A stretch of DNA of 64,000 nucleotides. Source: Pyrinomonadaceae bacterium. GTDB taxonomy: Bacteria > Acidobacteriota > Blastocatellia > Pyrinomonadales > Pyrinomonadaceae. Under the pieces are notes generated by a model. That model worked only from the letters and a program-made list of their open reading frames with translations. It was not told the DNA's origin and ran no database searches. The position numbers were made by a program, and so were the translations under genes. Positions 4,601 through 52,389 of the stretch are shown here, piece after piece. The stretch is taken from positions 10,387 to 74,386 of the forward strand of contig DATELK010000065.1 in assembly GCA_035276685.1 (NCBI GenBank), read 5' to 3'. Positions within the stretch are counted from its first letter, which is position 1; each line of letters begins with the position of its first letter.

Positions 4601-7600
4601 CGAAGGCGTAGAGCAGCCGTCGCTGGTCGAAGGCGTGTTGCCCAGAGCATCGTTGCCCGCGTTGTCGTTCAGATAAAGGTTGCCGTTAGAGTGCCAGACG
4701 AGGTCGTAAGCGTTGCGGAAGCCCGTCGCGTAAAGCTCGAACTTGCCCTGTAGCGGCGACATGTCCGAAGCCGTCTTCACGTTCTGCACGTTGAGCGTCG
4801 TCGTCCCTATCACCGCGAGGTTCAGTCGCACCACCGCCGCCGACAGGTAGTACTCATCAAGGTTGCTGAAGAAGGGACTCTTCTGCCCGTAGTTCGTGTT
4901 GCCTCCGGTTGCAAGGTAGAGCCAGCCGTCCGGGCCGAAGCTCATGCCGTTGACCGAATGGTTCTCTCTTGAGCGCGGAAGGCCTGTGACGATGTCCTGA
5001 TTGCCCGTCACGCTGAAGTCGTTCGGGTCTGAGGTGGAGTTGTTGGGCTGAAGCGTGAGCTTCGTGACAGTGCCCGAATAGGTGTCAATCGAAAGACCTA
5101 TGCTGTCCGTGTTCTGGCCTATGCGCGGGTCGCTGTTGCTCACGTACAGGACTACGTTCGCGGCCGTGCTCTCCGGCGCAATCACAAGTCCCGTGACCTG
5201 CCTTCCCGTCGGCGTGCCCGAAAGGAACTGGCAGTTCGTCAACTGGCCGTTGATGTTGCAGGTGCGCGTGGGCTTGCTGGCTATCTGGTTAAGAGTCTGA
5301 ACGCCCGTGACGGCAAGCTGCCCTGTTTGAGCGAGCTTCGCCTGGTCGAGCGTCACTATGTAAATTTGCCCTAGCTGCGTCGCGATGTAGAGACGCTTGT
5401 CCGGCCCTATGGCTATGCTGGTCGGATTGGCGAAGCCGTTGATGCCGAAGACCGAGCCGGAAGTCGTGCCGCTCTTGATGATGGTCTTGTTGATAAAGCT
5501 TATGACGGGAGGCGCTGGCGAAGCCGCGACAGCCGCGCCAAGCTCGAACTCGTCAAAGACCGTGTTGAAGGAGGACGCGGGGCCCGAGTCGGTCGTAAGC
5601 AGCCCGCCGTAAAGCTGGCTGTTCGACGTGCTCCAACCCGGCGCGCTCGCGGTCGTGCCCACGGAGTTGGTCGCGCCGAAGGTGGGCGAAGACGTAAGGC
5701 TCGTCACCTTGCGATAGAGAGCTTCTATGGTGCCGTCGCTCTTACGCACGAGCCAGAGGTCTAAGGCTTCCGTGTTGCTGTCAAGCTCCGTCAAATCAAA
5801 GGGCACGTCCGCGACGACGTTCGTGAATACGCCGCCCGTCTCAAGGCCGAACTGCAAGCGGCCCGCGCCGTTCGCGTACCCCACGACGAGCTTCGCGTAG
5901 TTGTCGCTGTTGAGAGCGAGCGCCACGCCCGCCGATTGAAAATTGGCCGAAGGGATAAACGGCCCCTTGATGCGAGCGCGCACGGAGTAGCTCGCGCTGT
6001 TGTTAATCTTGAGGGCGAGCGCGTTGGCCTGCCCCGTCATGTTCTGGAAGATGTCGCCGTCCGTGCTGGTGACCGTCAACTGGCTGTTGAAGCCGCTCAA
6101 AGTCAGGCCCGTGCTGGCCGCGTCCGGCTGTGCCGTGCCGGGCATGAAGCAGTTAAAGCCGCTTCCCGCGTAAGTGTCCGCGACGGCTCCGCTGAAGTTC
6201 AGGAGCGTAGGATTCGGTGCCGTGTTACAGGCGGGCAGAGCGCCCGAAGCCTTCGCGCTCACGGGCGCTGTGGGAGCCGACGCGCCCGCGTTGTTAACAG
6301 CCGTCACCAAGTAGAAATAGGTGGCGCTCTGTGAAGCGTTCGTGTCTACGAAGGCGGAAGAGGTGAGCGGCGTCGTGCCGTTATAAGGCGTGCCGCTAGT
6401 GCTCACCGCGCTCGTGGTGCCGCGATAGACGTTATAGCCCGTGGCGTTCGACACGTCGTCCCAGTCGAGACTGATGTTGCCGAAACCGGGCGTGGCCGTC
6501 AGGCCCGTGGGCGTGGGCGGCGGCGTGTTGGCCCCGGAGCGTGCGCTCTCAGCAGGGCCGTTGCCCGTAGGCGTAAAGCCCGCCGAAGTCGTCAAGAGCA
6601 GCCGGTCAATACGCATCCCGTCTTCTCTCATCCAGACGTTGACGGTATGCACGCCTGCCGTCGTCACGTTGAGAGTCGCGACGGGGCCGTCCGAGGTGCT
6701 GTTGGTCCAGAGGAAAGTGCCTAGCGTGCCCAGCGTCATGCGGTCTGCGCTCGCAACCGCCTGACCGTCGAGTCCCGCGTGGACAGAATTATCCTGCAAG
6801 CTGTCGGCTTCGGCCCTCAGCCATAGATAGTAGGTTCCGGTGGCGGAGAAGTTGACCTTGTACTGTAGCTCAGGCGTGGTCGTAGTGTAGTTTGTATCAA
6901 CCTGATTGCCGTTGTTCGGAGACGAAAGCATCGCTCCCGTGCCCGTGTATCCTGCTTTGTCCGTGACCTTCGTCCACGATTGCCCGCCGCGCGAAATCTG
7001 CTGGTCGTAGTTCTCTGCCTCCATCACGACCTGCCCGCCCTGCTCTATGAAAGCGCCGCTGCCGGGCGTAGGCGTCGGTGTAGGAGTCGGCGTCGGCTGC
7101 GGGTTAAAGTTCGGGTCGTACTCAATGACTATGACGGATGAAGTGAGGCTCGTCCTCCCGCTTGAATCCTTTGTGACGGCTACTATGTGATTGATGCCGC
7201 CCGTGGTGTCCGAGCGCGTGAGCGTGACGGGGATGTCAACGAAGCCCGCAGAGCCCACGGTCGCAGTCTGCTCTGAGACACCTATGGCCTTGTTGGCGTA
7301 GAAGGGCGGCAGGCCCGCGCCGTTGCCGGAGCCCGCGTCGGTGTAAAGCCCGCCTTCCAGCACCATGAGCTGCACGGTCGAGCCTGCCGTGCCGAAGACG
7401 CGCACGGTCTGATTGGCGGTCGTGACTGTGGCGGGCGCGTTCGGAACGTTCAGCACGGAGACCGCGGGCTGCGCTGGCCTGTAAGCCTTGCCCGTGTTCT
7501 GCGACTGGCTGAGGCTCGCGGGGATGCGGTAGGTGTCCATGACGCGCACTTCGCCGTTACTGAACTCAACCGTCACGCGCGCTCCTACAAGCTCAAGCCC

Positions 7601-9643
7601 CGAGACTTTGCCCGAGAGACTGGGCCCGTCGTTGTTCGTAGTCCCCTTGATGCTGTTCGGGTCAACGTCGAGCGAGAAGGTAAAGGTCTTGCCGGGGTCG
7701 AAGGTGCTGAAGTCTATCTCAAGCACGTCGAAGCCGCCGTTGTGGCTACCGCTGAACCTTGGATTAAAGTAGCCCACGCCGGGGTCGCTGTCCGGCGTGA
7801 AGGTCTTGCCCACGGGGTCGCCGCCCGTGCCCGTAGGGTCAAAGACCATGTCGGGCAGGATTGTGTCTCTCAAATCGACTTTGACGCGCGTGATGCGCTC
7901 GCCCGACTGGGAGCTGTTCGTAATCTTGAAAGAGCCGCTGTTGTAGGTGCTGGCATTAAGGCCGCTCTCGTTCGCCCCGTTGTCGGGCGGCGCAATAGAG
8001 AAGAGCGCCTGCGGCGAGAGCTGCGTCGGGTCTGCAAGTGTGGCCGTGCGCGTAGTGGTCTGCGGAGTGATGCCGCGCACGTTGCCGCCGCCCGTCGTGA
8101 CGATAGTGTTACCTACGACCTGCGCCACGACCGCTCTTAAAGGCTCGGCCAGAGGCGTCAGCTCTCGCCACGTATTTGTAGCTGGATTGTACTCGCTTAA
8201 GTTTCCGAGTTGGTCTGCCGTCAGTCCCTTGCCGCCCGCGATGATGATGCGCTCGTTGACGACGAAGGTGCCGGGCTCGAAGTGCGAGCGGGCAAGCGAC
8301 AGGCTCGCGCGCGAGGCCCACTGTCCCGTCGCGGGGTCGTAGACTTCTACGGTTGTGATGTCGGTGAAATTGTCGTGGTCGTGGCCTCCGCCTATCAGGT
8401 AGATTTTCCCGTTGACGACAGCCGCAGCGTGATGCACGCGCCCGCTCGTCATGGGCGTGGACGTAACCCAGCTCACAGGGTTATCAAGATTCAGAATCCA
8501 GTGGTCAGCCGTGTCCGTGTGGCGGTCGTTCAGCGTGCCGCCGAAGAAGTGTAGCTCACGGCCGACGCGCACCATCGCGCCGCCCGCTCGCACGCCGGGC
8601 AGAGCGGGGCCGTCCGTCCACACGCCCGTAGTCACGTCGTACATCCAGACGTTGCTGATGCCTGTGCCGGGGAAATCTCCCTGAAAGCCGCCCGCTATCC
8701 AGATGTGCTGGTCGTCTACGGCAACGGCGTGGTGCGTCAAGGGCACGGGCATGTCTGTGCCGCGCGACCAGGTGTTCGAGCCGGGGTCGTAAATGTCTAC
8801 GCGAGACGTAGCCTGCAAGCTCTCCGTGATGAAGCCGCCTAGGACGTAGACCTTTCCGGCCGCAACGGTGGCAGGGCCTTCGTAGCGCGCCACGGGGATA
8901 GGAGCCGCCTGCGTCCACGTCAAATTAGATGAAGGCGGCGGCGTAGGTGTAGGCGTCGCAGGCGGCGGCGTTGAGCCGCTGAAGACTTCAATGGCGCTGA
9001 CCTTGGCGTTATCAACACTTGCAGCAAAGCTTATGTCCAACACTCCGTCACTGACCGTCACCGGTACCTGCTCGACTATTGCCTTCAGCGCTCCCCCTGC
9101 CCTCTGATAGATGTCATAGTTGGACAGCACCACGCTGTTCTCCACACTGACATCAAAGACTCTGGAGCCTGCTCCTCCTCCGTTTCCTCCTACCCCGTGC
9201 CATATCTCCGCAAAGTGCAGCCTCACCGTGTATGTCCCGTTCTGCACTGGAATGGCATATTTAAGTGATGGCGTGCCCTGTGCCCCTCCGTATCTCTCTG
9301 TCTGGTAGAGAGAGTCATCCACAGTGTTCTGTATGTCTGTTGATGAAGAGATGGAGAAGGTAGAGCCGTTCTGGAAGTAGGTGTCTGCTTTCCATTGCTG
9401 CCCTTGTGAATCTGTGTAGACCCCGCCTCCTGCGTTCACTCTCTCCACGCTCGACTGCGCCGATGCGGAGTTGGAGAAGAGCGTGCCCCGCAGGAGCGCG
9501 ACTCCGGATAGAAGCAGCAGGGCAACGAGCAGAAGCGCGAGCCTTTTAACTCCTCTATGAGATAAACCTTTGTTGGACGAAATGGAAGCGGATTGCGAGA
9601 ATGGCTGCAAAAGCAGATTGCGCCGGATGCGGGGCTTAGACAT
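1697..9643 (-). CDS. Giant secreted multidomain carbohydrate-binding / propeller protein (2648 aa)
   Basis: N-terminal signal/TM ([18 protein letters not shown]..ASAQS). Two malectin-like domains ([21 protein letters not shown]). Kelch-type propeller ([38 protein letters not shown]). Two FN3 domains ([34 protein letters not shown]). Two CBM-like beta-sandwiches ([13 protein letters not shown].Y ... [15 protein letters not shown]). Two LamG/ConA-like modules. An SGDH/PQQ-type sugar-dehydrogenase-like propeller ([35 protein letters not shown]). Asp-rich thrombospondin-type-3-like Ca sites ([26 protein letters not shown]). PT linkers. Confidence 0.9.
   Translation of the reverse strand: [2648 protein letters not shown]
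2387..2476. repeat. Low-complexity hexanucleotide-period tract encoding a (Pro-Thr)n linker
   Basis: Minus-strand codons read [33 protein letters not shown]. The plus strand reads as repeated ggagtt/ggcgtt units and produces the spurious GVGVGV ORF 2397..2612. Confidence 0.9.
2496..2953. repeat. Intragenic direct repeat, copy 2 (malectin-like domain 2)
   Basis: Aligns without gaps at a constant offset of 6495 nt to 8991..9448. It includes an 86-nt run (2670..2755 = 9165..9250) that is identical base for base. Confidence 0.9.
8991..9448. repeat. Intragenic direct repeat, copy 1 (malectin-like domain 1)
   Basis: See 2496..2953. Same orientation, same gene, 6495 nt apart. Confidence 0.9.
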
Positions 9644-10052: not shown

Positions 10053-11312
10053 TTATATCTTTGAGACTATCTGGCCGAGAGCGTCTTCGCTCTGTTCACC
10101 TTCGGGCGCGCTCTTAATCGTCCAGTCGTGCGGCGTGAAGAATCGCCCGCGCACTATGCGGCCGGGGTCTACGCGCATCATGGCGCAGTGATACTGCCAC
10201 TCTATGCCTTCGAGGGGCTCTCGCTGCACGACGGTCGCGTCCAGGTGGTAGATGCCCGGCTGAAGCCCAAGCTCGGGGCAGGTGAATTCCACCACTCCCG
10301 CGCCCGGCTCAACGTCCAGCCTTCTCTCGCTCGATTCCGTAGTCAGCTGGCAGTGCAGCTCGTCGTCGCCCGCGTAGAAGAATAGCTCGAAGACAGCATC
10401 CTCTACGCGCTCGTGCGCGAAGTACTCTACCGACACCGAGAGCGGCCCGCCCGTCTTAAAGGCAGTTGTTTCCTGGCCCAACGAGTCGCGGAAGACGACG
10501 GAGCGAACCTCTATCCTGCGCGTGTTGATGCTGGCTCCCGATGGCGGCGGCTGCGAGGCCGTGAAGCTTCCGGCGATGCGCTGGTATTCGGCAATGACTT
10601 CGCGCGGCGGGCCGCTCGCGGCGACCTCTCCGCGCTGAATGAGCAGCACGCGGTCGCACAGTCGCTCCACGGCACCTAGGTCGTGCGAGACGAAGACGAT
10701 GGTTTTTCCGCCGTGCTTGAGGTCTGTGATTCTCTGTAGACACTTGGCCTGAAAGGCAGCGTCGCCTACGGCCAGCACTTCGTCCAGCAGCAGCACGTCC
10801 GGGTCAAGGTGCGCCGCGATTGAGAAGCCTAAGCGCACGTACATGCCCGAAGAGTAGCGCTTGACGGGAACGTCTATGAACTGCCTGATGCCTGCGAACT
10901 CGACTATCTGTTCCAGTTTCTCGGTTATCTCACGCCGCCGCATCCCTAAGATTGAGCCGCTCAGGTAGACGTTCTCTCTTCCGGTAAGCTCCGGATGAAA
11001 GCCCGAGCCGACTTCTATTAAAGCCGAGAGCCGCCCGTTGATGGTTATCTGTCCTGAGGTCGGCGTGGTGATGTTCGACAGGAGCTTGAGAATGGTGGAC
11101 TTGCCCGCGCCGTTATGGCCTATGATGCCGAGCGCCTCGCTTCTTTCCACTTCAAACGTGACATCGCGCAGCGCCCAGAAGTCCTGCGAGCCTCGCCTGA
11201 GCCGTCTCAGGACGCGCGAGACGGGGTTGCCACCTGCCGCGCTTTCATCATCATTTGCGCGCACCTTGTATCTCTTCGAGACGTGGTCGAATTTGAGGTC
11301 AATCATAGCCAT
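10053..11312 (-). CDS. wzt: Polysaccharide ABC exporter ATP-binding protein with C-terminal carbohydrate-binding extension (Wzt/TagH type)
   Basis: Walker A GHNGAGKST, signature YSSGMYVRL, Walker B LLLDEVLAVGD. A ~150-aa C-terminal beta-rich extension resembles the Wzt C-terminal glycan-binding domain. It lies next to an ABC-2 permease. Confidence 0.85.
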   Translation of the reverse strand: MAMIDLKFDHVSKRYKVRANDDESAAGGNPVSRVLRRLRRGSQDFWALRDVTFEVERSEALGIIGHNGAGKSTILKLLSNITTPTSGQITINGRLSALIEVGSGFHPELTGRENVYLSGSILGMRRREITEKLEQIVEFAGIRQFIDVPVKRYSSGMYVRLGFSIAAHLDPDVLLLDEVLAVGDAAFQAKCLQRITDLKHGGKTIVFVSHDLGAVERLCDRVLLIQRGEVAASGPPREVIAEYQRIAGSFTASQPPPSGASINTRRIEVRSVVFRDSLGQETTAFKTGGPLSVSVEYFAHERVEDAVFELFFYAGDDELHCQLTTESSERRLDVEPGAGVVEFTCPELGLQPGIYHLDATVVQREPLEGIEWQYHCAMMRVDPGRIVRGRFFTPHDWTIKSAPEGEQSEDALGQIVSKI

Positions 11313-11330
11313 CTTCGCTTAAGCCGCACG

Positions 11331-12215
11331 TTAGATAACGTCGGCGATTGTCGCCTCCACGCGCTTGAAGTAGACGTAAGATATTGCGAGCAGCACGAGC
11401 GACGTGACAAGCGCTACGCCCAGAGAGACGAAGTCCGGCGGCTCGCCCTGAAGCATCACGCGGCGAAAGCTCTCTATGATTCCGGCCATAGGGTTGAGCA
11501 TGTAAAAGGGGCGCAGCCAAGCGGGCACAGCGCTCAGTGGATAAACGACCGGCGAGGCGAACATCCAGAGCTGCATAAGGAGCGGCATGGCCACGCCTAT
11601 GTCCCTAAAGCGCACCTGTGTCGCCGAGAAAAGGAGCGACACGGCCGTCGCAAAGCAGGTCAGGACGAGGACAATCGGAATGCTGTAGAGAGCCGTCCAA
11701 GTCAACTGTACCTGGTAGTAAACCAGTAGCCCCGCGAACACGATGCTCGCCACCAGAAAATCGAAGAGCGCCGCGATGACGTAAGTCAGCGGAAGAATCT
11801 CTCGCGGGAAGTAGACCTTCGTCACGAGGTCTGCGTGACTGACGAGCCCGTTCGTCGAATTAACGAGCGCCGTGGAAAAGTATGTCCAGGGCAGCAGCGC
11901 AGAGTAGGCGAAGACAGCGTAAGGGATGCCGTCGCTGGGCATGCGCGCTATGTAAGAGAAGATGAGCGTGTAGATGAGCATCAGCGAGAGCGGTTGCAGC
12001 ACGGCCCACGCCACGCCCAGCACAGACTGCTTGTAGCGCACCTTGACGCGATGCACGCTCAGCGTGTAGAGCAAGTCCCTGTAGTGCGAGAGCTTCACCA
12101 CGTCGCGCAGGACGCCCGCGAAGGAGACGGCCGGCGCGCCTATGATGGTCACGCGCCGCTCTCTTGAATCGTAAGCGGCGTCCCGCAACTGCTCCGATGT
12201 GACATCCGAACTCAT
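11331..12215 (-). CDS. wzm: Polysaccharide ABC exporter permease (ABC-2 type, Wzm/TagG type)
   Basis: 294 aa with about 6 TM helices. The N-terminal region LSVHRVKVRYKQSVLGVAWAVLQPL is typical of ABC-2 permeases. It sits immediately upstream of wzt. Confidence 0.85.
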   Translation of the reverse strand: MSSDVTSEQLRDAAYDSRERRVTIIGAPAVSFAGVLRDVVKLSHYRDLLYTLSVHRVKVRYKQSVLGVAWAVLQPLSLMLIYTLIFSYIARMPSDGIPYAVFAYSALLPWTYFSTALVNSTNGLVSHADLVTKVYFPREILPLTYVIAALFDFLVASIVFAGLLVYYQVQLTWTALYSIPIVLVLTCFATAVSLLFSATQVRFRDIGVAMPLLMQLWMFASPVVYPLSAVPAWLRPFYMLNPMAGIIESFRRVMLQGEPPDFVSLGVALVTSLVLLAISYVYFKRVEATIADVI

Positions 12216-17101: not shown

Positions 17102-18283
17102 TTAGACGGCGATGCTCTCTTCGACCAGAACCAGCGAGCGCACTTTCTCTCGCAGAGCCAGCTCAAAGCGGCGCGCCTCTTCAATCTCGGAGAAGGCCAG
17201 CGCGCGAAGCTCCTGCTCTATGCGGCGGCGATAGTCAGAGACGAGCGAGTCTGAGACTCCAAGAGCGCTCGCCACTTCCAGCTGCGTCGAATGCTCCGGG
17301 CTCAGGTAACAGTGCCACAGCACGCCGAGCATGCGGTTGTACTGCTTGACCTTCCCGCGCACGCTCTCGTGCAGGCCCTTCAAAAACTGCTCGACGCATC
17401 CGGCGGCGGCCTGCTCCGACTCGCGCCTCAAGAGCCCCTCTTCGGGATTGTCGCCAACGTCCACGGGCTCAAACTGCATCCCGCCTTCTTCGCCGTCGTC
17501 GCCTCCTAGCGGCACGAGGTAGATGTCCATGACGGGGAGCCTCGACATCACAAGGCTGCGAAGCGCGCGCACGTCCACGGGAGAGTCCACCGCCTCAAGG
17601 ACGGAGATAATAAGGTCTTCCAAATCAGAGTTGCTGATGACCACCTGAGCGTCGCCCGTGCAGCCCACCATGCGCGTGTCGCGCTGGCGCATCGGTATCA
17701 TCTGCACTCTCTGCTCAAGCTCATGCGTCTCGCGCCTTCCCTTCCCGTCGGGCCACTCCGAGAGGCCATAGACGCGGTCAACAAGGCGGCGGTGCGGCTC
17801 GTCGTTCATGCCCGAAGAGTCGAAGCGGCGGAAATTGGCGCTCGATTGAATCAGGGTAGAGATGCGGCGGGCCAGTCTATAGGATTCCGGGTGACGCTTG
17901 CGTAGCTCTGCCGTCAGAAGATTTGTCAGCTCAATCTGCCCTATCTCGCACTCGATTTCGGCATCGGTCATCCCAGTGTCCAGATAATGCTGAAAGCGCC
18001 CCTTGCTCAAAAGCTGCACGAACAGCTCCTGCGTGAGGTCTGTGTAAGCGTTTTGCGCCCCCTCTTCGACAAGGAGCCCTGCGCTGCGGGAGGCGCGCAC
18101 GAGCGGGTGATGACAGACGACGCGGTGCAGGTCGCTCCAGAGCTGTGAAACGTCCGAGCGCTTGAGGCTGTTAACCCACTGTATGCTCTTCGGTTGGCGC
18201 TCCCTAAAGGCGCGTTGCGAGCGCGGCTGTTCCTTCAGAGCGCTCATGGTTGATTCGGGATGATTAGTGCCGGTAGCTTTCAC
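17102..18283 (-). CDS. Hypothetical regulator with sigma-70-like region 2 and region 4 (HTH) remnants
   Basis: 393 aa, GTG start. AYTDLTQELFVQLLSKGRF resembles sigma region 2.1/2.2. The C-terminal STQLEVASALGVSDSLVSDYRRRIEQELR resembles a region-4 HTH. A long acidic insertion lies between them. Confidence 0.35.
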   Translation of the reverse strand: MKATGTNHPESTMSALKEQPRSQRAFRERQPKSIQWVNSLKRSDVSQLWSDLHRVVCHHPLVRASRSAGLLVEEGAQNAYTDLTQELFVQLLSKGRFQHYLDTGMTDAEIECEIGQIELTNLLTAELRKRHPESYRLARRISTLIQSSANFRRFDSSGMNDEPHRRLVDRVYGLSEWPDGKGRRETHELEQRVQMIPMRQRDTRMVGCTGDAQVVISNSDLEDLIISVLEAVDSPVDVRALRSLVMSRLPVMDIYLVPLGGDDGEEGGMQFEPVDVGDNPEEGLLRRESEQAAAGCVEQFLKGLHESVRGKVKQYNRMLGVLWHCYLSPEHSTQLEVASALGVSDSLVSDYRRRIEQELRALAFSEIEEARRFELALREKVRSLVLVEESIAV

Positions 18284-19044: not shown

Positions 19045-19368
19045 ATGAGGACTTCAAGCATCACGGTGTTTTCCAAGCAGGCTAGCTGCCCCTCAGCCGA
19101 GACGCTCGTTTCATACAATACTTCAACACTTTCGGCGGGCGCTCGGGCGCACGTCCTGGAGCATCTCTCGTCCTGCGAGTTCTGTAGCGCGGAGCTGAAA
19201 CTGCTGTCCGAGCACACACCGCTTGAGGAAGAGTACCGCGCAGCGGAAATCCCAGCGCACCTGCGCTCGCTGGCCGAGGCTCTTATGGGCCAGACGGAGC
19301 TATCGGGCATACTCTCTCTCAGGGAAATCTCCTGCGAGCCGGAGCGGCTGACGCTGACGGACGCTTAA
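19045..19368 (+). CDS. Soluble zinc-binding anti-sigma factor-like protein (ZAS, zf-HC2 motif)
   Basis: 107 aa with Cys15 followed by HLSSCEFC (H-x3-C-x2-C) at residues 40-47. No TM segment. Size and Cys/His spacing resemble RsrA-type ZAS proteins. AAGGGTGAG lies upstream of the ATG. Confidence 0.55.
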   Translation: MRTSSITVFSKQASCPSAETLVSYNTSTLSAGARAHVLEHLSSCEFCSAELKLLSEHTPLEEEYRAAEIPAHLRSLAEALMGQTELSGILSLREISCEPERLTLTDA

Positions 19369-19387
19369 AAATCTTGAAATAGATGCT

Positions 19388-19426
19388 AAAAGGCACTAAG
19401 CAGAGATAATTTGCTTAGTGCCTTTT
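19388..19426. terminator. Bidirectional intrinsic terminator hairpin between convergent genes
   Basis: AAAAGGCACTAAGCA - 9-nt loop - TGCTTAGTGCCTTTT. The stem is a perfect 15 bp flanked by an A-run and a T-run. It lies between the stop at 19368 (+) and the stop at 19454 (-). Confidence 0.8.
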
Positions 19427-19453
19427 ATTGTGACGCGTCCTTGATTTATCTCT

Positions 19454-22156
19454 TCAAATACGAATCTCTTCAAGGCAGGCCCTGACCTCGCGGGCCAGCA
19501 CCTGTACGTGCGGCTCGTCGTACATGTTCAGGTGATTGCCGGGCACTATGCGAACGTCCACGCCGCCCGAGGCCAGCTCCTTCCATCCCTTGTCGCGGCC
19601 GAGCGCGCGGAAGACGGGCTGGGCTCGGGTGCGAAAGAGCGTGACGCGCCCCTCATAGCGCCGCGCCTCGTAGCCCGCAAGGGCCTGAAACAGCGCTTCG
19701 CTCACGCGGCGATGATTGTCCGGCAGAAGCGCCACGTCCAGCATGTCTTCCAGATTTTCCCTGTGGGCTTCTACGTGCAGCGGGCCAATGCGGCTGAAGA
19801 GGTTTCGCCCGACCCGCTTCAGGTGCCTTTTGACATCGGCGGCGACTTCGCGCGGCTGTCGCTTGAAGACGTGGTCGGCCAGCCAGTAGGGAAGGTTCAG
19901 CGCCGTGTGGAGAAGGCGAGCCGCGCTGATTCCCTGCTCATTCGAGCCCGGCGCTTCTTCGTCCAGCACGGCGAGGAGCGCTATCTCCTCTCCGCTCTCC
20001 TGTAGCTGCTGGGCCATCTCGAAGGCTATCACGGCCCCGAGCGAGTAGCCGCCGAGTATGTACGGCCCCGAGGGTTGAACGCTTCGCACAATCTCCACGT
20101 AATGCGAGGCCATGGCGCGCATGTCCGTGAAGGGCTCTTCAAGGCCGTCGAGCCCGCGCGCCTGTATGCCGTAGAAGGGATGGGCCGAGCCGAGGTAGCG
20201 CGCAAGCGTGCCGTAACCGAAGACCTCGCCGCCTATCGGGTGCATGAAGAAGATAGGCGTGCGCTCGCCCTCTGTCTGAATCTCCACGAGCGAAGACCAC
20301 CTCTTCTCGGGCACATGCGACTCTATGACTCGCGCCAGGTGCTCTATAGTCCCTTCGTGTATGAGGGCCGAGAGCGGGATGTTCTTGCCAAGGCTGTCAT
20401 GAACCTCAAGCAGCATGCTGACGGCCAAAAGCGAGTCGCCGCCAAGCTCGAAGAAGTTGTCGCGCACGCCTATGGGAGAGATGCCTAGCACGCCTTCCCA
20501 GATTTCCTTAAGCTCGCTCTCAATCTGTGTGCGCGGTGACTCCGTGGCTTCGCCCGGCTCGTGTATGGGGCTCGGGCTGTGCGCGGCGAGCGAGAGGCGG
20601 TCGACTTTTCTGCTCGGCGTCAGCGGCATCGTCTCAAGATGCACGAAGCCCGAGGGCAGCATGTAATCCGGCAGCCTCGCCGCCAAAAACTCCCGCAGCT
20701 CTTTGGCCGTGGCAGTTTTTCCGGCATCCTTCGAGACCCAGTAGGCCATGAGCCGCTTGTTGCCCGAAGCATCCTCGCAGACGAGCGCCACGCTCTGGCC
20801 CACAGCTTCGTGCTGCGAGAGCGCCGATTCTATCTCGCCAAGCTCTATGCGAAAGCCGCGTATCTTGACCTGGCTGTCGGCCCTTCCCAGAAACTCTATG
20901 TCGCCGGAGGGCAGCACGCGCCCGAGGTCTCCAGTCCTGTAGAGCCTTGCGCCGCCGTGAATGTCGAAGGGGTCAGGGACGAATCTCTCTGCGGTCAATT
21001 CGGGCCGCTCAAGGTAGCCGCGCGCAAGGCAGACGCCGCCCACGTAAATCTCGCCCGCCTCGCCTGCCCCGACCCTTTGGAGTCGCTCGTCTAGCACGTA
21101 AACCCGTGCGCCGTCTATAGGCCTGCCTATGGGAACGGAAGAGGCGTTTGCCGAAAGCTCTCGCGTGTCGCAGAAGGTGGCGTCGGCAGCCGCTTCCGAC
21201 GAGCCGTAGAGGTTAAGAAGCGTCGTCTCAGGCGCGCTCTTTCTAAAGCGCTCGCAAAGCTCTGGCGAAAGCGCCTCGCCGCTGCTGACGCAGACCTTAA
21301 GCTGCGGCAGTCTTCGCCCAAGCTCCGGCTCCGCGTCCAGCATGGCGCGCAGGAGCGACGGCACGAGCACGATTCTCGTCACCTTCCGCCGCGCCAGAGT
21401 CTCTATAAGCCTGCGCACGTCCTTCACATCTTCATCGGGGATGATGACTAGAGGCACGCCTTTGAGGAGCGGCCCGAAAATCTCCCACACGGAATCTACG
21501 AAGCTGAGCGCAGTCTTCTGGCACAAGACCTCTCCGGTCTCGAAAGGAAAGGCGCGCCACATCCACTGGAAGCGATTGACCGCGCCCTTGTGCAAGCCCT
21601 GAACGCCTTTGGGCCTGCCCGTAGAGCCGGAGGTGTAAGCCACGTAAAGCAGATTTTCGCCCGTCAGCCCGGACGGCGGATTATCGGAGCGCGCGTCAGC
21701 CAGACGACCATCCATTTCATCCAGCACAATCACCCGCGCGTCGTGCTCTGTAAGCGTGCCGGAGAGTTTTTTCTCAGTCAGTAAAAACGTGGGACGCGCG
21801 TCCGCGAGCATGAAAGAGAGCCTCTGCTTCGGGTACGAGGGGTCGAGCGGAAGGTAAGCGCCGCCAGCCTTTATGACGGCGAGGATGGCCACGAGCATCT
21901 CAGCGGAGCGCTCCGCGTGAATGGCACAAAGGGTTTCGAGGCGAGCGCCAAGCGAAAGCAGGTGATGCGCCAGACGGTTCGCGCGCTCGTTCAGCTCTCG
22001 GTAGCTGAGCCGCTGCTCTTTGAAGTAAACGGCCACACTGTCAGGCGTGCGCTCTGCCTGCTCCTCGAAGAGTTGCTGTATGGATAAGGCTTGCGGCTCC
22101 CGCACTTGAATAAAGTTATCGGCTGACGAAGGATTGTATAGTTCGACTTTCAGCAT
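19454..22156 (-). CDS. Single-module NRPS-like protein: adenylation - thiolation (PCP) - thioesterase
   Basis: A-domain cores LSYRELNERANRLAHHL, YVAYTSGSTGRPKGV, NLYGSSE, YRTGDLGR, GRADSQVKIRGFRIELGEIE, PLTPSRKVDR. PCP motif FFELGGDSLLAV. TE motif GGYSLG. The track ORF extends to a TTG at 22282, but that TTG is part of a TTGACA-18-CATACT promoter-like motif, so ATG 22156 is preferred. Confidence 0.85.
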   Translation of the reverse strand: MLKVELYNPSSADNFIQVREPQALSIQQLFEEQAERTPDSVAVYFKEQRLSYRELNERANRLAHHLLSLGARLETLCAIHAERSAEMLVAILAVIKAGGAYLPLDPSYPKQRLSFMLADARPTFLLTEKKLSGTLTEHDARVIVLDEMDGRLADARSDNPPSGLTGENLLYVAYTSGSTGRPKGVQGLHKGAVNRFQWMWRAFPFETGEVLCQKTALSFVDSVWEIFGPLLKGVPLVIIPDEDVKDVRRLIETLARRKVTRIVLVPSLLRAMLDAEPELGRRLPQLKVCVSSGEALSPELCERFRKSAPETTLLNLYGSSEAAADATFCDTRELSANASSVPIGRPIDGARVYVLDERLQRVGAGEAGEIYVGGVCLARGYLERPELTAERFVPDPFDIHGGARLYRTGDLGRVLPSGDIEFLGRADSQVKIRGFRIELGEIESALSQHEAVGQSVALVCEDASGNKRLMAYWVSKDAGKTATAKELREFLAARLPDYMLPSGFVHLETMPLTPSRKVDRLSLAAHSPSPIHEPGEATESPRTQIESELKEIWEGVLGISPIGVRDNFFELGGDSLLAVSMLLEVHDSLGKNIPLSALIHEGTIEHLARVIESHVPEKRWSSLVEIQTEGERTPIFFMHPIGGEVFGYGTLARYLGSAHPFYGIQARGLDGLEEPFTDMRAMASHYVEIVRSVQPSGPYILGGYSLGAVIAFEMAQQLQESGEEIALLAVLDEEAPGSNEQGISAARLLHTALNLPYWLADHVFKRQPREVAADVKRHLKRVGRNLFSRIGPLHVEAHRENLEDMLDVALLPDNHRRVSEALFQALAGYEARRYEGRVTLFRTRAQPVFRALGRDKGWKELASGGVDVRIVPGNHLNMYDEPHVQVLAREVRACLEEIRI

Positions 22157-22252
22157 AAAGAAGAGGCACAGCTTAACCCTCGTTTCGTGTGCGACTAGGC
22201 GAGTAAAGGCAGACCGGGTAACAGGCTTTAGCGGCCCAACGGCGCGCTTGAG

Positions 22253-22282
22253 AGTATGGATTCTCAGGCGCACGCCTGTCAA
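22253..22282 (-). promoter_or_regulatory. Candidate sigma-70 promoter for the NRPS-like gene
   Basis: On the minus strand: TTGACA (22282..22277), 18-nt spacer, CATACT (22258..22253). Located in the gap downstream of the acyl-CoA ligase stop (22332). Confidence 0.35.
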
Positions 22283-22331
22283 GATTTATAGTCTTACGGC
22301 TCTGTTAAAAGGTGAGGTGGGCCAGGCGTGA

Positions 22332-24151
22332 TTACTCCGAAGCGCCGTAAAGCTCGTCAATCAGGTCAGAGTATTTCTCGTCGACTATGCGTCTTTTGAC
22401 CTTCAAGGTGGGCGTCAGCTCGCCGCCGTCAATGGTGAACTCTTCCGGCAGCAGGGCCACGCGGCGCACCCGTTCGTAATCGGCAAGCTCCGTAGTGAGC
22501 TGAATGATTTCGCGCTGGACTATCTTGACGGCTTCGGGCGCGCGGCTCAGCTCTGCGCGCCCTCGCGGCGGCTCCGAGCCGTTCTTCTGCATGGCTTCAG
22601 AGAGCGCTTCCCAATCGGGGACGATGAGCGCGGCGGGCTGCTTGCGGCCCGCTCCTATGACAACGACCTGGCTGACAAGCTCGCTCTGCTTGATGAGGCT
22701 CTCTACCAGTTGCGGCGCGACGTACTTGCCGTTCGAGAGCTTGAAGAGGTCTTTCTTGCGGTCTGTGATGTAGAGGTGGCCGCGCTCGTCCATGCGGCCA
22801 ACGTCGCCGGTCGCGAACCAGCCGTCCTTCAGCACTTCACTCGTCTCTTCCGGCTTGCCGTAATAGCCGCGCATGACGTTCGGCCCGCGCACCACTATCT
22901 CTCCGTCCTCCGCAATCTTCACTTCCATCCCCGGAAAGACCAAGCCGACAGAGCCCACCTGGTTATCCTCGGGGCGGTTGGCAGAGACGATGCAGGTCTC
23001 TGTCATGCCGTAGCCCTGAAGAATTGGAATGCCTGCGGCCATGAAGGAGAAGGAGAGCGTGGGCGAAAGCGGCGCGCCGCCCGAGACGAAGAAGCGCAGG
23101 CGGCCGCCTACGCCTTCGCGCCACTTTGAGAAGACGAGGCGGTCTGCCACAGACTGCTTGAACTTGAGCGAGAGGGGAATGCGCTCACGCTTGTCCTTCA
23201 ACTCCGCGTAGCGCAAACCCGTCCGCATGGCATCTTCAAAGACCTTTCGCTTCCAGCCTTTGGCGGACATACCGCGCTTGACTATCTTGTGATAGACCTT
23301 CTCGAAGAGCCTCGGCACGGCCGTCATAATCGTCGGGCGCACTTCGCGCAGGTGCTCGCCCACCTGGTCGAAGGAGGCAGAGTAATGCACGGAGACGCCC
23401 GTGTAGCAGAAGACGTAAAAGACCGCGCGCTCGAAGATGTGCGAAAGCGGCAGCACCGAAAGCGCCACGTCAGAAGTGTAGATGGGAAGCGAGCCCGCGA
23501 TTGAAAGGACGTTCGAGACGAAGTTGTTGTGCGAGAGCATCACGCCCTTAGGCTCGCCCGTAGTCCCGGAAGTGTAGATGACGGTCGCAAGGTCATCGAG
23601 GCTCACGGCTGAAAGAAATCGCTCGAAGGCTTCCGGCTCACGCTCTGCCCTGGCGCGTCCAAGCTCTTCCAGTTCTGAAAGCTTTCCGCCGCGCTCCACT
23701 CCTTCGTCCGCGCCTTCGTCAAAGAAGATGATTCGCTCAAGCTGCTCAAGGCCGTCGATTCCGGGCCGCGCGTGCTTGAAGACTTTTTTGCCCGAGACGA
23801 ACAGGAGCCGCGCGCCTGAATCCCCGAGGATGTAGCGCACCTGCTCCACGGCTTGCGTCGTGTAGATGGGAACGTTGACGGCACCGAGGCTCAGGATTGC
23901 GAGGTCAACGATTGACCATTCGGGGCGGTTCTCGGAAAGCAGCGCGACGCGGTCGCCGGGCTTGACGCCAAGCTCCGAGAGCCCCAGCGCGATACGCTCT
24001 ATGCGCGTGAGAAACTCCGAGGCAGAGATGCGCTCCCAGCGCCCGTCTCGCTTACGGTTAAGCGCGTCCGGCTTAGAGTGCTCGCGCACGCCCGACAGGC
24101 ACATCGCCGGAAGGGATTGAAAATCGGAGGCGGATTCTACCTTTTGACTCA

Positions 24152-24152
<1 letters not shown>
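22332..24152 (-). CDS. Long-chain acyl-CoA (AMP-forming) ligase, FadD/ACSL-like
   Basis: [63 protein letters not shown] at 24152 overlaps the UXS TGA (TGATG). The track start is the TTG at 24155. Confidence 0.85.
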
Positions 24153-26101
<1,949 letters not shown>

Positions 26102-26154
26102 CAGTAACCCCTCTTCCGTAGGGCAGATTATTAGAACAACGATTATTGAATCAA

Positions 26155-26574
26155 CTACTCGGGGAGCGCGCCGCCCGGCTTCAGCGCCAGCGTGCAGCGC
26201 GAGACGCACACCATACGGTCGCGCTCGTCCTTTATCTCTATGGCCCAGACGTTCATCTGTCTTCCTATGTAGACGGGACGGGCTTCCGCCACCACGCGGC
26301 CCTTGGTCACAGAGCGCAGGTGATTGGCGTTTATCTCTACGCCGACGGGCGTGTAGCGTGTCAGGTCTGTGTTGAGCGCCGCGCCGATTGAGGCGGCAGT
26401 TTCGGCAAGCACGACCGAGACGCCGCCGTGCAGGAGCCCCGTGTACTGGTGAACGCGCTCTGTGACAGGCATGGAGAGAACAACGCGGTCTCGCTCGGCT
26501 GCCTCAACCGTGATGTCCAGAGTCTCAAGGACAGTGTGGCCTCGTCTGCTTCGCAAAGTTTCAAGCACGTTCAT
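26155..26574 (-). CDS. Hotdog-fold thioesterase (PaaI / DHNA-CoA hydrolase family)
   Basis: 139 aa. ...ERDRVVLSMPVTERVHQYTGLLHGGVSVVLAETAAS... is typical of PaaI-type thioesterases. Confidence 0.75.
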   Translation of the reverse strand: MNVLETLRSRRGHTVLETLDITVEAAERDRVVLSMPVTERVHQYTGLLHGGVSVVLAETAASIGAALNTDLTRYTPVGVEINANHLRSVTKGRVVAEARPVYIGRQMNVWAIEIKDERDRMVCVSRCTLALKPGGALPE

Positions 26575-26608: not shown

Positions 26609-27781
26609 TCAGGATACTACCTGCTCTTCTTCTTCCACGCTCTGGGCGGCTTTCGTTTCCCGCCCGGCGCTTCTGCCGGACGCGCGCCAGCCCTGACCGC
26701 CCAGAATCTTTACGTCCACGAGCCCCGCGCGCTCGAACCACTCGGCCACCTCCGCGCTTGAGTAGCGGTTCTCAATCGGCGCGGAGAAGCGGTCGAACTG
26801 GTCTGTGTGCAGCACGCGGAAAGAGTACTTGCGATAATGGCCCAGCGGCACGCGGTCTGCCAGCCCGCTCGTACTACTGAAGCGCCCGAGCACTCGTGCA
26901 GGCGTGACGAAAGCCACTTCAAACCCGGCTGCTATCAACCAGGAGACTTTCTTCAAAAGATTATGGGGCATGCGAGTGGTGACGCGCCGCGCGGCTGTCA
27001 CGACGCCGAGCAGCGCCCGACGCCACGCCGCCTCGCCCTCAAGATTCCAGTAAAGATAGATGTTCATGAACCCGCCCTTGCGTAGAAGCTTGAGCAGCGA
27101 GCGGAAGCCCTTCTCAGGCTCCGGCAGGTGATGAAGCACGCCCAGGCTGTAGATGAAGTCGAAGGTGCCGGGCCGAAACGGCGGGCGATAGATGTCCGCC
27201 TGAACGAAGTGGGCGTTCGTGTGCGCGCGGTTGTTGCGCGCGGCGACCTCTATGGCCTGACTCAAGTCCATCGCAATGACTTCGCGCGCGGTCTTCGACA
27301 CGTAGTAGGTGTGGCGTCCCGTGCCGCATCCCGCGTCCAGCACTCGCTTGCCACGGAAGTCAGCGGGCGAAAAGCGCTCGAAGTACCAGAGAAAGTTCTT
27401 CTCGTAATCCTCGGGCAGTATCTCTGAGAAAGCCTGCCACTCGTAGCCGAAGCTGCGCGCCGTCTCTTTCTGCTTCGTAAGAGCCTTGTCCGTCTCGCCA
27501 GCATTCTTTGAAAGGACTTCCTGCGGCAACGCGTCTTCCGGCAAATGTTTCCCGTGCTCGCTATAAAATTCCGGGTGCATCTCCCACAGCATCGACTGAA
27601 GGTCTGCGGGCAGAAGGCGCGGGATGCCTCCTATGATTGGATAAGAGGCTCCGCACGCGCACCTTAAGAGGCCGCTTTCGGTCTCGTCTGCGGACGACAC
27701 ACTTTGCGCGTCGAAGCTCTCAAGCGAGAGCGCACCCGCACACACGGGGCAAACAATCAGCTCTAACAGGTTCTTCCTCAT
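26609..27781 (-). CDS. Class I SAM-dependent methyltransferase with N-terminal Trm112-like zinc ribbon
   Basis: LELIVCPVCAGALSL ... LRCACGASYPIIGGIPRLLP (Cys4 ribbon), then the VLDAGCGTGRHT SAM motif. Paralogue of 52352..53383. Confidence 0.8.
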   Translation of the reverse strand: MRKNLLELIVCPVCAGALSLESFDAQSVSSADETESGLLRCACGASYPIIGGIPRLLPADLQSMLWEMHPEFYSEHGKHLPEDALPQEVLSKNAGETDKALTKQKETARSFGYEWQAFSEILPEDYEKNFLWYFERFSPADFRGKRVLDAGCGTGRHTYYVSKTAREVIAMDLSQAIEVAARNNRAHTNAHFVQADIYRPPFRPGTFDFIYSLGVLHHLPEPEKGFRSLLKLLRKGGFMNIYLYWNLEGEAAWRRALLGVVTAARRVTTRMPHNLLKKVSWLIAAGFEVAFVTPARVLGRFSSTSGLADRVPLGHYRKYSFRVLHTDQFDRFSAPIENRYSSAEVAEWFERAGLVDVKILGGQGWRASGRSAGRETKAAQSVEEEEQVVS

Positions 27782-30654: not shown

Positions 30655-32454
30655 TTAGTCTTCGTCCACCTGCTCTATCTTAATCAGCATGCGCTTGAGC
30701 GAGACGTTCACCTCTCGGCAGTCGTCCAGAATCTCGCGCACGCGCTCCTTTGAAATCTTTGAGCTTGAGATGAGTATCTCGTCAATGCGCTGGTCGCTGC
30801 AAATGCTCTGCAAAGAGCCGTTGCCGCCATACACCTTCAGCCCGTGTATGACCTTTCCCTTCTTGTTCGGGTCGTCGTCAATGAAGCCCACGGGCGCGTA
30901 CTTCAAGTCGCGGTTATTGCGAAGCTCTCTCAGTAGAAGCTCGCCCCCATCGCCCGCGCCGTAAATCAGTATCCGTGCGCCTTCAAGCGACTGCGGCTGC
31001 GGCAGCACCTGCCGGAACAGTCGGAACGCCATGCGGCTCCCGGCCACCATCATCAGCAGTATTATCGCGTCAACTATGAAGACCGTGCGCGACACGCCCT
31101 CGAACCTGAAGGCGAAGAGCACGGCCAGCAGGCTCGCGACGGAGCTTATCACCACGGCCTTTGCGAAGACCACGAGGTCGTCAACGCTCGTGTATCGCCA
31201 GATGCCTCTGTAGACGCCCATCACCAGAAACGTAGCCATCTTGACGAACAGTATGACGGGCAGCGTGCGGAAGAAGATGGTGCGCGCGGTGCTTTCCGAC
31301 ATGGGCCCGAAGCGCAGGACGTATGCCAGATAATAAGAGAGGATGATAAGCACAAGGTCCAGCATCACCTCGAAGATCCTGCGCTTGTAGGAGAGGTCAA
31401 CCAGAAAGGCGGAGAGCGGTTTCTCGCGCGCCGCCTGAGCATCCTTCTCGTCGTAAACCTTCACGCCCGAGAGATAAACGCCGAGCAGAGTCAGCACCAC
31501 CGTGAAGCCCGAGACGGCGGCTATGCTCATGTCCGGCTCCATCTGCCTGACCAGCAGCGCCAGAAGTCCGGAGAGAGCGGCGAAGCCGTAGAGCATCAGC
31601 ACCGCGCGGCGCTCGGACATCCCCAGCGCCACGAGCCTATGCGAAGTGTGGTCGCGCCCGCCTTGCCTGACGGCACGGCCCGACAATTTGCGCACGACCG
31701 TCACGAGCGTAGTGTCGAAGATAGGGATAAACAGGATAAGAATCGGCACGGCCAGCACGGGCAGAAACGAGCGCGAGCGCCCGCCCGAGACACTCATCAA
31801 AGCCGTGCTCGCGATAAAGAAGCCTATGAACATGGAGCCGCAGTCGCCCATGAAAATCGAGGCCGGGTTCGAGTTGTAGGCCAGGAAGCCTACGAGCGCG
31901 GCGGCGAAGACGGCCAGCATGGAGGCTTCCACGAACTGGCCGTTGGCGATGAAGCTCAGGGCCAGAAAGATTGAGGCGATGGCCGCGATGCCCGCCGCCA
32001 GCCCGTCCATGTTGTCCAGCAGGTTGATGGCGTTGGTGATGCCTATCAGCCAGAAGATGGTGATGGCTATGTTGACGGTGTGCGAGCTTGTCCACGGCAG
32101 GCTCAGGCCGTAATAGATGATGAAGGCCGCGCCCATCACCTGCCCTATCAGCTTCTGGTAGGGCTTGGCGTGAAAGATGTCGTCGGCCAGTCCCATCAGA
32201 AAGAGAAAGGTGCTTGAGCCTATGACGACCCAGCCGTAGGGCGTGTGCTCTATGAAGAGTAGATAAGGGATGACGACCGAAAGCCAGATGCCTGTGCCGC
32301 CGAGCATGGCCGTGGGCTTCTTGTGCCAGCGGTCAATCTTGGGCTTGGCGACCATGCCTACGCGGCGCGCGACGAGGCGCACCAATGGCGTCAGGATGAG
32401 CGAAAGAGCAAAAGCGAGCGCTATGGCAGTAATCTGTAGCGTATCGAAAGGCAT
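30655..32454 (-). CDS. WecA/MraY-family polyprenyl-phosphate hexose-1-P/HexNAc-1-P transferase fused to a C-terminal TM + CoA-binding-like (WbpM/WbaP N-terminal type) domain
   Basis: GLADDIFHAKP, NAINLLDNMDGLAAG, FMGDCGSMFIGF (GT4/MraY-type). After more TM helices comes ILIYGAGDGGELLLRELRNNRDLKYAPVGFIDDDPNKKGKVIHGLKVYG. ATG 32454 (MPFDTLQI...) is preferred over the track GTG at 32517. Confidence 0.8.
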   Translation of the reverse strand: MPFDTLQITAIALAFALSLILTPLVRLVARRVGMVAKPKIDRWHKKPTAMLGGTGIWLSVVIPYLLFIEHTPYGWVVIGSSTFLFLMGLADDIFHAKPYQKLIGQVMGAAFIIYYGLSLPWTSSHTVNIAITIFWLIGITNAINLLDNMDGLAAGIAAIASIFLALSFIANGQFVEASMLAVFAAALVGFLAYNSNPASIFMGDCGSMFIGFFIASTALMSVSGGRSRSFLPVLAVPILILFIPIFDTTLVTVVRKLSGRAVRQGGRDHTSHRLVALGMSERRAVLMLYGFAALSGLLALLVRQMEPDMSIAAVSGFTVVLTLLGVYLSGVKVYDEKDAQAAREKPLSAFLVDLSYKRRIFEVMLDLVLIILSYYLAYVLRFGPMSESTARTIFFRTLPVILFVKMATFLVMGVYRGIWRYTSVDDLVVFAKAVVISSVASLLAVLFAFRFEGVSRTVFIVDAIILLMMVAGSRMAFRLFRQVLPQPQSLEGARILIYGAGDGGELLLRELRNNRDLKYAPVGFIDDDPNKKGKVIHGLKVYGGNGSLQSICSDQRIDEILISSSKISKERVREILDDCREVNVSLKRMLIKIEQVDED

Positions 32455-32524
32455 GGCTTGAAAGATTTCCGGCGAATCTGAAACCCTAGTAGATTGCGCG
32501 CGACAAATCAAGCGCACAGAAAGG

Positions 32525-52310: not shown

Positions 52311-52389
52311 AACAGGGATGTGCAGGATGAACAGGATAAAGAAGAGATGCTTTATCTTTTATCCTGCCTATCCTGTCCATCCCTGTTAA
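52311..52389. repeat. CAGGAT-hairpin repeat, copy D
   Basis: AACAGGGATGTGCAGGATGAACAGGATAAAGAAGA ... TTTTATCCTGCCTATCCTGTCCATCCCTGTTAA. The last 13 codons of 52352..53383 (EINRDGQDRQDKR) are read from this repeat. Confidence 0.85.

Follow-up and report, generated by a model that had tools for sequence, protein, structure and literature searches.

Three genes for acyl activation and thioester chemistry lie close together inside a polysaccharide gene cluster of a Pyrinomonadaceae bacterium, and this locus raises the question of whether they form a single pathway and, if they do not, what the rarest of them does there. The window analysed is a 64,000-nt stretch of one contig; all coordinates below count from its position 1, and labels such as L001, L087 and L171 denote the relative loci used in comparison. 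The rarest gene encodes a stand-alone protein like those of nonribosomal peptide synthetases (NRPSs), in which an adenylation (A) domain, a thiolation (T) domain or peptidyl carrier protein (PCP) and a thioesterase (TE) are joined; it is called A-T-TE below. Comparison with related loci shows that the region is a composite with genes of three ages and not a three-gene module, and A-T-TE is a plausible candidate for a variant of carrier-dependent aminoacylation, present as a fused cassette in a glycan locus. The genes concerned are the following.

19454..22156, minus strand: A-T-TE, a stand-alone NRPS-like adenylation-PCP-thioesterase protein of 900 amino acids (aa), from Pfam and NCBIfam
22332..24152, minus strand: putative long-chain acyl-CoA ligase, ACSL/FadD11-like, with AMP-binding and AMP-binding_C_3 domains
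24152..26101, minus strand: UDP-xylose-synthase-like short-chain dehydrogenase/reductase (UXS), interrupted by an intein, from a family search
26155..26574, minus strand: hotdog thioesterase of the YdiI/YbdB/PaaI subfamily, with a 4HBT domain

Genes of three ages in one locus

The arrangement from which the sequence-only reading had started was confirmed: all three genes lie at these coordinates on the minus strand of a glycan locus of roughly 55 kb, and the intein-bearing UXS gene stands between those for the hotdog protein and the ligase. Its proposal that the trio works as one functional unit, which would decorate the glycan or its lipid anchor, did not hold up against the distribution of the genes. 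The comparison set comprised 88 related loci, including 80 further metagenome loci; 65 of them were informative downstream of the ligase, and the presence of the hotdog gene was scored in 60. The ligase is universal, and in nearly all 88 loci it is found beside Wzy_C and a pair formed by a small open reading frame (ORF), orf107, and a regulator. The hotdog gene occurred in eight of the 60 loci. A-T-TE was found in three of the 65, all clade members, and none was present downstream of the ligase in the other 62. On the ligase tree these distributions are nested, with the ligase everywhere, the hotdog gene in one monophyletic clade and A-T-TE in one sub-clade inside it. The ligase is an ancestral part of the locus: it belongs to an envelope-glycan scaffold conserved in Pyrinomonadaceae, whose order is WecA-like fusion, TPR/CBM protein, Wzy_C, ligase, small convergent ORF, regulator and second Wzy_C. 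The hotdog gene was gained once in a sub-clade, and A-T-TE was gained once, later, within that sub-clade.

Altogether about 13 A-T-TE orthologues were found (74-86% identity), all from Pyrinomonadaceae-type metagenomes, and five independent A-T-TE loci have a gene order like that of the window. With so few orthologues and none in the 62 informative loci outside the clade, a complete A-T-TE is indeed as unusual in this setting as had been supposed. Loci L087, L088 and L089, with ligases 82, 80 and 74% identical, retain the scaffold, including the hotdog gene, and have no A-T-TE. Their order is WecA-fusion, TPR/CBM, Wzy_C, hotdog, ligase, a 107-aa ORF, regulator and Wzy_C, with some 100 bp between the stop codon of the ligase and the 107-aa ORF. 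In a typical locus about 200 bp separate Wzy_C and the ligase. No repeats or mobile-element scars were evident in the junction sequences at the insertions. Because the ligase and the hotdog gene both occur in loci lacking A-T-TE, they have roles that do not need it; possibly they serve an older function of the locus, namely acyl-CoA supply and editing. That proofreading of the A-T-TE carrier was the original, dedicated role of the hotdog protein was considered and rejected, since the hotdog gene predates A-T-TE.

Transcription signals were predicted on both sides of A-T-TE, the terminator facing orf107.

22253..22282, minus strand: sigma-70-like promoter TTGACA-18-CATACT, from a promoter scan and conserved hexamers
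19387..19427, strand not assigned: terminator hairpin of 16 bp with A and T runs on either side, from folding energy
19045..19368, plus strand: orf107, 107 aa with an H-x3-C-x2-C motif, read from the sequence

The promoter sits in the 176-bp spacer upstream of A-T-TE, matches at 10 of 12 positions and is the top site in 9.7 kb. Both of its hexamers and their spacing are invariant in five lineages, and the sequence between them varies. The hairpin has a folding energy of -23.4 kcal/mol (z -4.64), which no shuffled version out of 200 matched, and L001 and L003 have hairpins of differing sequence in the corresponding position; it is predicted to be a strong intrinsic terminator that serves in both directions, for A-T-TE and for orf107, which converges on it. 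The ligase and A-T-TE of L171 are parted by two antisense genes, downstream of which the promoter block has stayed with A-T-TE. Given its own promoter, its terminator and the separation from the ligase in L171, A-T-TE behaves as a promoter-gene-terminator cassette. Independent transcription of A-T-TE is predicted, and read-through into it from the upstream operon is possible in the window. Two circumstances had been named beforehand as telling against a shared glycan role, namely independent transcription and conservation away from glycan genes. The first is predicted for A-T-TE, whereas the ligase and hotdog genes remain in the glycan loci of relatives.

These results bear directly on a joint action of the trio, in which the ligase would activate a fatty acid, A-T-TE would carry an amino acid and the hotdog protein would edit wrongly loaded thioesters, yielding an N-acyl-aminoacyl substituent or lipid anchor. 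We consider it improbable. The three genes are close together and co-directional and, by the nesting, every A-T-TE locus has both of the others, but the ligase is found in all loci and the hotdog gene in eight that lack A-T-TE. EntH, a relative of the hotdog protein (85.7 bits), proofreads an NRPS carrier protein; however, no condensation (C) domain, acyltransferase or second carrier to join the acyl to the aminoacyl group was found in the window, and both the antisense pair in L171 and the separate promoter part A-T-TE from the ligase.

Architecture and predicted substrate of A-T-TE

The three domains of A-T-TE were delimited as follows.

20606..22069, minus strand: adenylation domain, from alignment to LgrA
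20324..20515, minus strand: PCP (thiolation) domain, PF00550, E 4.7e-13
19490..20257, minus strand: type I thioesterase domain, PF00975, E 6.4e-31

The order in Pfam terms is AMP-binding (E 1e-86), AMP-binding_C, PP-binding and Thioesterase. No Condensation domain (PF00668) was found in A-T-TE, in which only about 25 residues lie ahead of the A domain; because the C domain is missing before A-T, the protein is not a complete NRPS elongation or termination module. Its A domain belongs with NRPS amino-acid adenylation domains by its score with the TIGR01733 model (438.4 bits against a cutoff of 317.4) and by its core motifs, for which A3 (TSGSTGxPKG), A7 (YxTGD), A8 (GRxDxQVKIRG) and the A10 Lys were checked. 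The second domain is assigned as a PCP from its PP-binding match with a GGxS serine; the codon of the phosphopantetheine Ser, in GGDSL, lies at 20432..20434 and is invariant in 13 orthologues. The thioesterase at 19490..20257 is an alpha/beta-hydrolase with a GxSxG serine, an aspartate and a histidine (Ser in GYSLG, Asp in LAVLDEE, His in PGNH), all conserved, and PDB matches of A-T-TE reach into the TE domains of EntF and SrfA-C. All 13 A-T-TE orthologues retain motifs A3, A5, A7, A8 and A10, the phosphopantetheine Ser of the PCP and the Ser, Asp and His of the TE.

The start at 22156, giving 900 aa, agrees with the earlier assignment: this ATG is kept in relatives, and the gene calls of orthologues range from 897 to 930 aa. 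A longer ORF of 942 aa from a TTG at 22282 was rejected because that TTG is the opening of the -35 hexamer. With dN/dS values of 0.135-0.153 against two relatives, similar to those of adjacent enzymes, A-T-TE is intact and under purifying selection, and from its sequence the gene is taken to be functional. The idea that it is a decaying, functionless remnant of an NRPS termination module is close to refuted: the missing C domain of the nearest relatives and the lack of a nearby gene for a phosphopantetheinyl transferase (PPTase) would fit it, but the frame is intact in 13 lineages with dN/dS of about 0.14, and the catalytic motifs are all conserved, as is the promoter.

The nearest relatives of A-T-TE are C-A-T-TE termination modules that carry the code VDWV(V/I)SLADK, the same as that of A-T-TE and its orthologues, share the A-T-TE order and are 55-59% identical across the A domain. 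They end multimodular NRPS lines or mixed lines of polyketide synthase (PKS) and NRPS. These modules differ in having a C domain, often a TubC_N docking domain, and an assembly-line setting; A-T-TE has neither domain and looks like a termination module without its C domain.

For the A domain of A-T-TE we extracted the specificity code V-D-W-V-V-S-L-A-D-K (GrsA positions 235..517) by alignment to solved A domains, LgrA among them. The code is conserved among A-T-TE orthologues as VDWV(V/I)SLADK; at GrsA position 235 they have Val, or in one orthologue Ala, followed by Asp at 236, and this displacement is seen in FVDSVWE. The mapping was checked on other modules in the match list, where canonical Ser, Gly, Thr and Val codes were recovered; the codes returned include DVWHISLVDK, DILQLGMIWK, DFWNIGMVHK and DAFWLGGTFK. 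Since the same mapping returned textbook codes for these modules, the extraction is sound. The remainder of the pocket (W, S, L, D) is like a small serine pocket but lacks the hydroxyl-reading His. VDWVISLADK, which differs from the code found here in one residue, is what we take to be the published beta-alanine code. In A domains for alpha-amino acids, Asp235 is the conserved ligand of the alpha-amino group (PMC11355689), and its substitution has been linked to substrates of other kinds (PMC11356792); A-T-TE lacks this residue. The predicted substrate is a small acid with a non-alpha amino group, most likely beta-alanine.

A related code, VDW(V/I)IS(L/F)ANK, was also seen in Nostocales C-A-T-TE proteins of about 1370-1395 aa (L012-L024, L029, L053 and L071). 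In these same proteins a Cys replaces the nucleophile Ser of the TE.

A proposed glycan decoration and its alternatives

The setting of A-T-TE is a co-directional cluster with its own exporter.

about 10053 to 56708, minus strand, co-directional: glycan cluster, from Pfam and NCBIfam family searches
10053..12215, minus strand: Wzm (ABC-2 permease) and Wzt (ATPase with a Wzt_C carbohydrate-binding domain), from a family search

The reading that we favour, and hold to be about evenly poised, is that A-T-TE works in the cytoplasm, where it takes up a small beta-amino acid on its carrier and, through its TE, passes it to the glycan or a precursor. The A domain would adenylate the acid, beta-alanine being the best candidate, and the PCP of the same protein, primed with phosphopantetheine by a PPTase whose gene lies elsewhere, would receive it. 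The TE serine would then hand the aminoacyl group to a non-water nucleophile; such a transfer is most likely because, without a C domain, hydrolytic release would amount to a futile, ATP-wasting cycle. The favoured acceptor would be a hydroxyl or amino group of the glycan, of a nucleotide-sugar or of an undecaprenyl-linked precursor. The glycan would be completed in the cytoplasm and then exported by the accompanying Wzm/Wzt; since glycans of the ABC-transporter pathway are assembled in the cytoplasm, it would be within reach of a soluble enzyme. In this way the glycan would acquire positively charged aminoacyl groups as an optional, serotype-like feature; the ligase and the hotdog protein would not be dedicated partners. 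What survives of the decoration proposed by the sequence-only reading, tethered to a carrier and off-loaded by the TE, is thus the part that concerns A-T-TE alone, for which it is the most plausible role; the three-gene version does not survive.

Export and context point the same way. All A-T-TE loci (the window, L001, L003, L170 and L171) carry Wzm/Wzt with Wzt_C and a similar downstream glycosyltransferase block, and the sister loci L087-L089 have a Wzx-type Polysacc_synt protein, not Wzm/Wzt. In other lineages the slots flanking the ligase hold a Wzx flippase, a family 4 glycosyltransferase (GT4), a polysaccharide deacetylase, PMT_2 and two pyridoxal phosphate (PLP)-dependent decarboxylases. 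The latter are group-II enzymes, encoded beside the ligase at 8075..9598 of L146 (minus strand) and 15176..16528 of L096 (plus strand); their best matches are to diaminobutyrate (DABA) decarboxylase, at 148 bits against 900, and PanP, at 110 against 606. As a weak lead, they may point to amine or beta-alanine chemistry in other serotypes.

Envelope-polymer aminoacylation by systems such as Dlt and Alm alters surface charge, resistance to cationic peptides and environmental interactions. To our knowledge, the ligase, the carrier and the membrane transferase are separate proteins in all known envelope aminoacylation systems. If the favoured reading is true, aminoacylation of an ABC-exported glycan by one fused cytoplasmic A-T-TE would be simpler and, as a cassette that can be moved, portable, and TE off-loading onto sugars would be extended beyond Pks13. 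Natural variants with and without A-T-TE, whose flanking genes are 80-93% identical, offer a ready comparison for glycan chemistry.

Each step of the proposed mechanism has a counterpart in a known system, and each counterpart differs from the window. The carrier-borne aminoacylation of envelope glycolipids is the logic of DltABCD, which D-alanylates teichoic acids, and of AlmEFG, which places glycine on the lipid A of Vibrio cholerae (PMC4278540). As proposed here, an adenylating enzyme in these systems loads a phosphopantetheinyl carrier, and an envelope polymer or glycolipid gains positive charge (PMC4278540). In contrast to the fused A, T and type I TE domains of A-T-TE, however, their ligase, carrier and transferase (DltB/DltD or AlmG) are separate. 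The A domain scored 281-301 bits with DltA models, under the cutoffs of 476 and 560, and the window encodes neither a separate carrier nor a membrane transferase (DltB MBOAT, DltD or AlmG), so that it does not belong to either system. No second carrier protein and no DltB-, DltD- or AlmG-like transferase was found among the window ORFs. A mechanistic precedent for the last step is the type I TE of mycobacterial Pks13, which moves the acyl group from its carrier to the sugar trehalose and not to water (PMC9210659); Pks13 differs in that it belongs to the polyketide synthases and its acyl chains are very long. The closest likeness in overall form is MysE (Ava_3855) of shinorine biosynthesis in Anabaena variabilis, a stand-alone A-T-TE of about 890-900 aa without a C domain that joins serine to a non-peptide acceptor (PMC10666671). 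MysE differs in its L-serine substrate and mycosporine acceptor, whereas the code here lacks Asp235 and the gene lies in a glycan locus; the neighbours of MysE (EEVS, O-methyltransferase and ATP-grasp) are not found beside A-T-TE, which is thus not of the MysE type.

Several findings weigh against the favoured reading. The link of A-T-TE to the glycan is positional. A-T-TE and Wzm/Wzt were apparently acquired in one evolutionary event, as judged from the ligase tree, so their co-occurrence counts once, and L141 has Wzm without A-T-TE. The slots that hold glycan genes elsewhere also hold non-glycan cargo, such as a porin and a P-domain protein. No PPTase, MbtH protein or transferase partner was found in the window, and the TE is of the ordinary NRPS type, without any feature that marks transferases. 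Neither VDWVVSLADK nor VDWVISLADK, nor shorter pieces of them, matched in the literature text searched, and the call of beta-alanine is a reasoned but tentative one. The sequencing runs in which the sequence occurs are of metagenomic DNA only. Furthermore, stand-alone A-T-TE genes with the codes VDA- or VDS-VVSLADK (47-49% identity) occur in unrelated contexts, two of three adjoining an Sfp-type PPTase, and glycan loci are not the setting of the stand-alone A-T-TEs in the genome sample.

These points include most of what favours a different reading, namely that A-T-TE is a self-sufficient small-molecule enzyme with a soluble acceptor, forming for example a beta-aminoacyl conjugate or oligomer, whose gene happened to enter a permissive intergenic site where an operon ends. 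This reading is the main rival, though unlikely. It would be consistent with the gene's own promoter and terminator, with the unrelated cargo accepted by slots around the ligase, with the VDA/VDS-type genes beside PPTases and with the absence of glycan links among sampled stand-alone A-T-TEs; MysE shows that action on soluble acceptors is possible. However, A-T-TE has kept the same slot down to 74% identity while accessory neighbours changed, it is confined to loci of one glycan type, and its surroundings offer no partner genes with which a small molecule could be made or exported.

A glycan-locus setting as a general rule for stand-alone A-T-TEs was also considered and rejected: among about 14 cases in 80 genome loci, glycan-family neighbours were almost lacking. 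The glycan setting is thus a peculiarity of this clade. In two soil metagenome loci, L005 (9130..12769) and L006 (8986..12826), a stand-alone A-T-TE with the code VDAVVSLADK or VDSVVSLADK is divergent to an Sfp-type PPTase, and each pair may be a self-sufficient two-gene unit.

It is also conceivable, at a very low probability, that the PCP-loaded amino acid is modified in trans, for instance by a methyltransferase of the locus, and that the TE hydrolyses it off as a free building block. An A-T-TE with a hydrolytic NRPS-type TE fits the logic of A-T plus TE systems for beta-hydroxy amino acids, and among the genes of the window are several for methyltransferases and one for a radical SAM enzyme, but no tailoring gene co-varies with A-T-TE: the adjacent Trm112-methyltransferase is missing in L170 and present in L088, which has no A-T-TE. 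A small achiral substrate such as beta-alanine, moreover, leaves little to tailor. Within the favoured reading, a long shot is that the beta-aminoacyl group at the non-reducing end of an undecaprenyl-linked polysaccharide would be a chain-terminating cap read by Wzt_C; if so, an NRPS-derived enzyme would install a new chemical class of chain-length terminator of O-polysaccharides.

The ligase, UXS and hotdog proteins and the rest of the cluster

The remaining features discussed here are the following.

24683..25678, minus strand: LAGLIDADG intein of 332 aa within UXS, from comparison with orthologues
17102..18283, minus strand: regulator-like protein of 381-393 aa with a C-terminal, sigma region-4-like helix-turn-helix, from its translation
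30655..32517, minus strand: initiating enzyme, a fusion of a WecA/MraY-type GT4 (PNPT) with CoA_binding_3, from a domain search

For annotation, the region illustrates that co-directional neighbours in a glycan locus need not form a pathway: three adjacent genes for acyl and thioester chemistry have three ages. The ligase has 606 aa from an ATG at 24152 or 607 aa from a TTG at 24155; its start overlaps the UXS stop, and its translation is coupled to that of UXS. Its orthologues number in the hundreds (66-93% identity). The top NCBIfam match is FadD11 (NF038343), at 371 bits against a cutoff of 950, and the solved structures nearest to its sequence are distant. UXS is variable across relatives, missing from L089 and most loci. 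Its intein, which is not found in UXS orthologues with exteins 95% and 89% identical, is inserted between ...IGIRS and CYDEGK..., with Cys as its first residue and Cys at +1, and its C-terminal end is Gly-Asn, not His-Asn. The hotdog protein had been called PaaI-type, which holds at the level of the subfamily (TIGR00369, 120.6 bits against a cutoff of 36.6) but not for PaaI itself, whose equivalog model scored 35.6 against 118.9. The corresponding scores were 85.7 against 237 for EntH and 136.5 against 185 for MenI. The best PDB relatives are 4m20, PA1618, HI1161 and YdiI, with YbdB/EntH also near.

The cluster encodes GT2 and GT4 glycosyltransferases, nucleotide-sugar enzymes and several methyltransferases, together with two AsnB-type amidotransferases and two Wzy_C proteins; the radical SAM enzyme is likewise encoded in the window. 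As in the exopolysaccharide (EPS) loci of exosortase-A (PEP-CTERM) systems, Wzy_C, a TPR protein, AsnB-type amidotransferases and an AMP-forming ligase occur together. Nevertheless, the label of an exosortase-type locus was not borne out: no exosortase domain was found in the window by Pfam and NCBIfam searches, and matches to the models of such loci remained far under their cutoffs. With TIGR03098 (exosortase-A-associated ligase) the ligase scored 160 bits and A-T-TE 199 bits against a cutoff of 592, and the best match to TIGR03097 (O-antigen-ligase-like protein of such loci) was 107 bits against 188.

The regulator, whose gene opens the downstream unit, is the best conserved of the locus proteins (94-97% identity, dN/dS 0.04); no Pfam or NCBIfam model matched it. 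No Pfam or NCBIfam family matched orf107 either, which resembles zf-HC2 anti-sigma factors. Convergent to A-T-TE and present at 35-89% identity in most loci, orf107 forms the conserved edge of the insertion slot. The regulator and the convergent orf107 are found as a pair mid-locus in nearly all relatives, with about 780 bp of non-coding DNA between them.

In the initiating enzyme, the CoA_binding_3 domain is typical of the unrelated WbaP/WcaJ-type phosphoglycosyl transferases, and its fusion to a WecA-type enzyme is kept throughout the family. Two class I S-adenosylmethionine (SAM)-dependent methyltransferases with an N-terminal Trm112-like zinc-ribbon are encoded on the minus strand at 26609..27781 and 52352..53383; the first is variable among relatives, being absent from L170 and L087 and present in L088. 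A 250-aa protein at 50193..50945 (minus strand) had no Pfam match and a weak NCBIfam match to hexapeptide-repeat sugar O-acetyltransferases (WcaF/WbbJ-like), and the glycan is probably O-acetylated by this separate enzyme. Directly downstream of Wzt lies the gene for a 2648-aa protein with Malectin, Kelch propeller, GSDH and GH115_C domains (1697..9643, minus strand), and in L001, too, a Malectin protein comes after Wzt.

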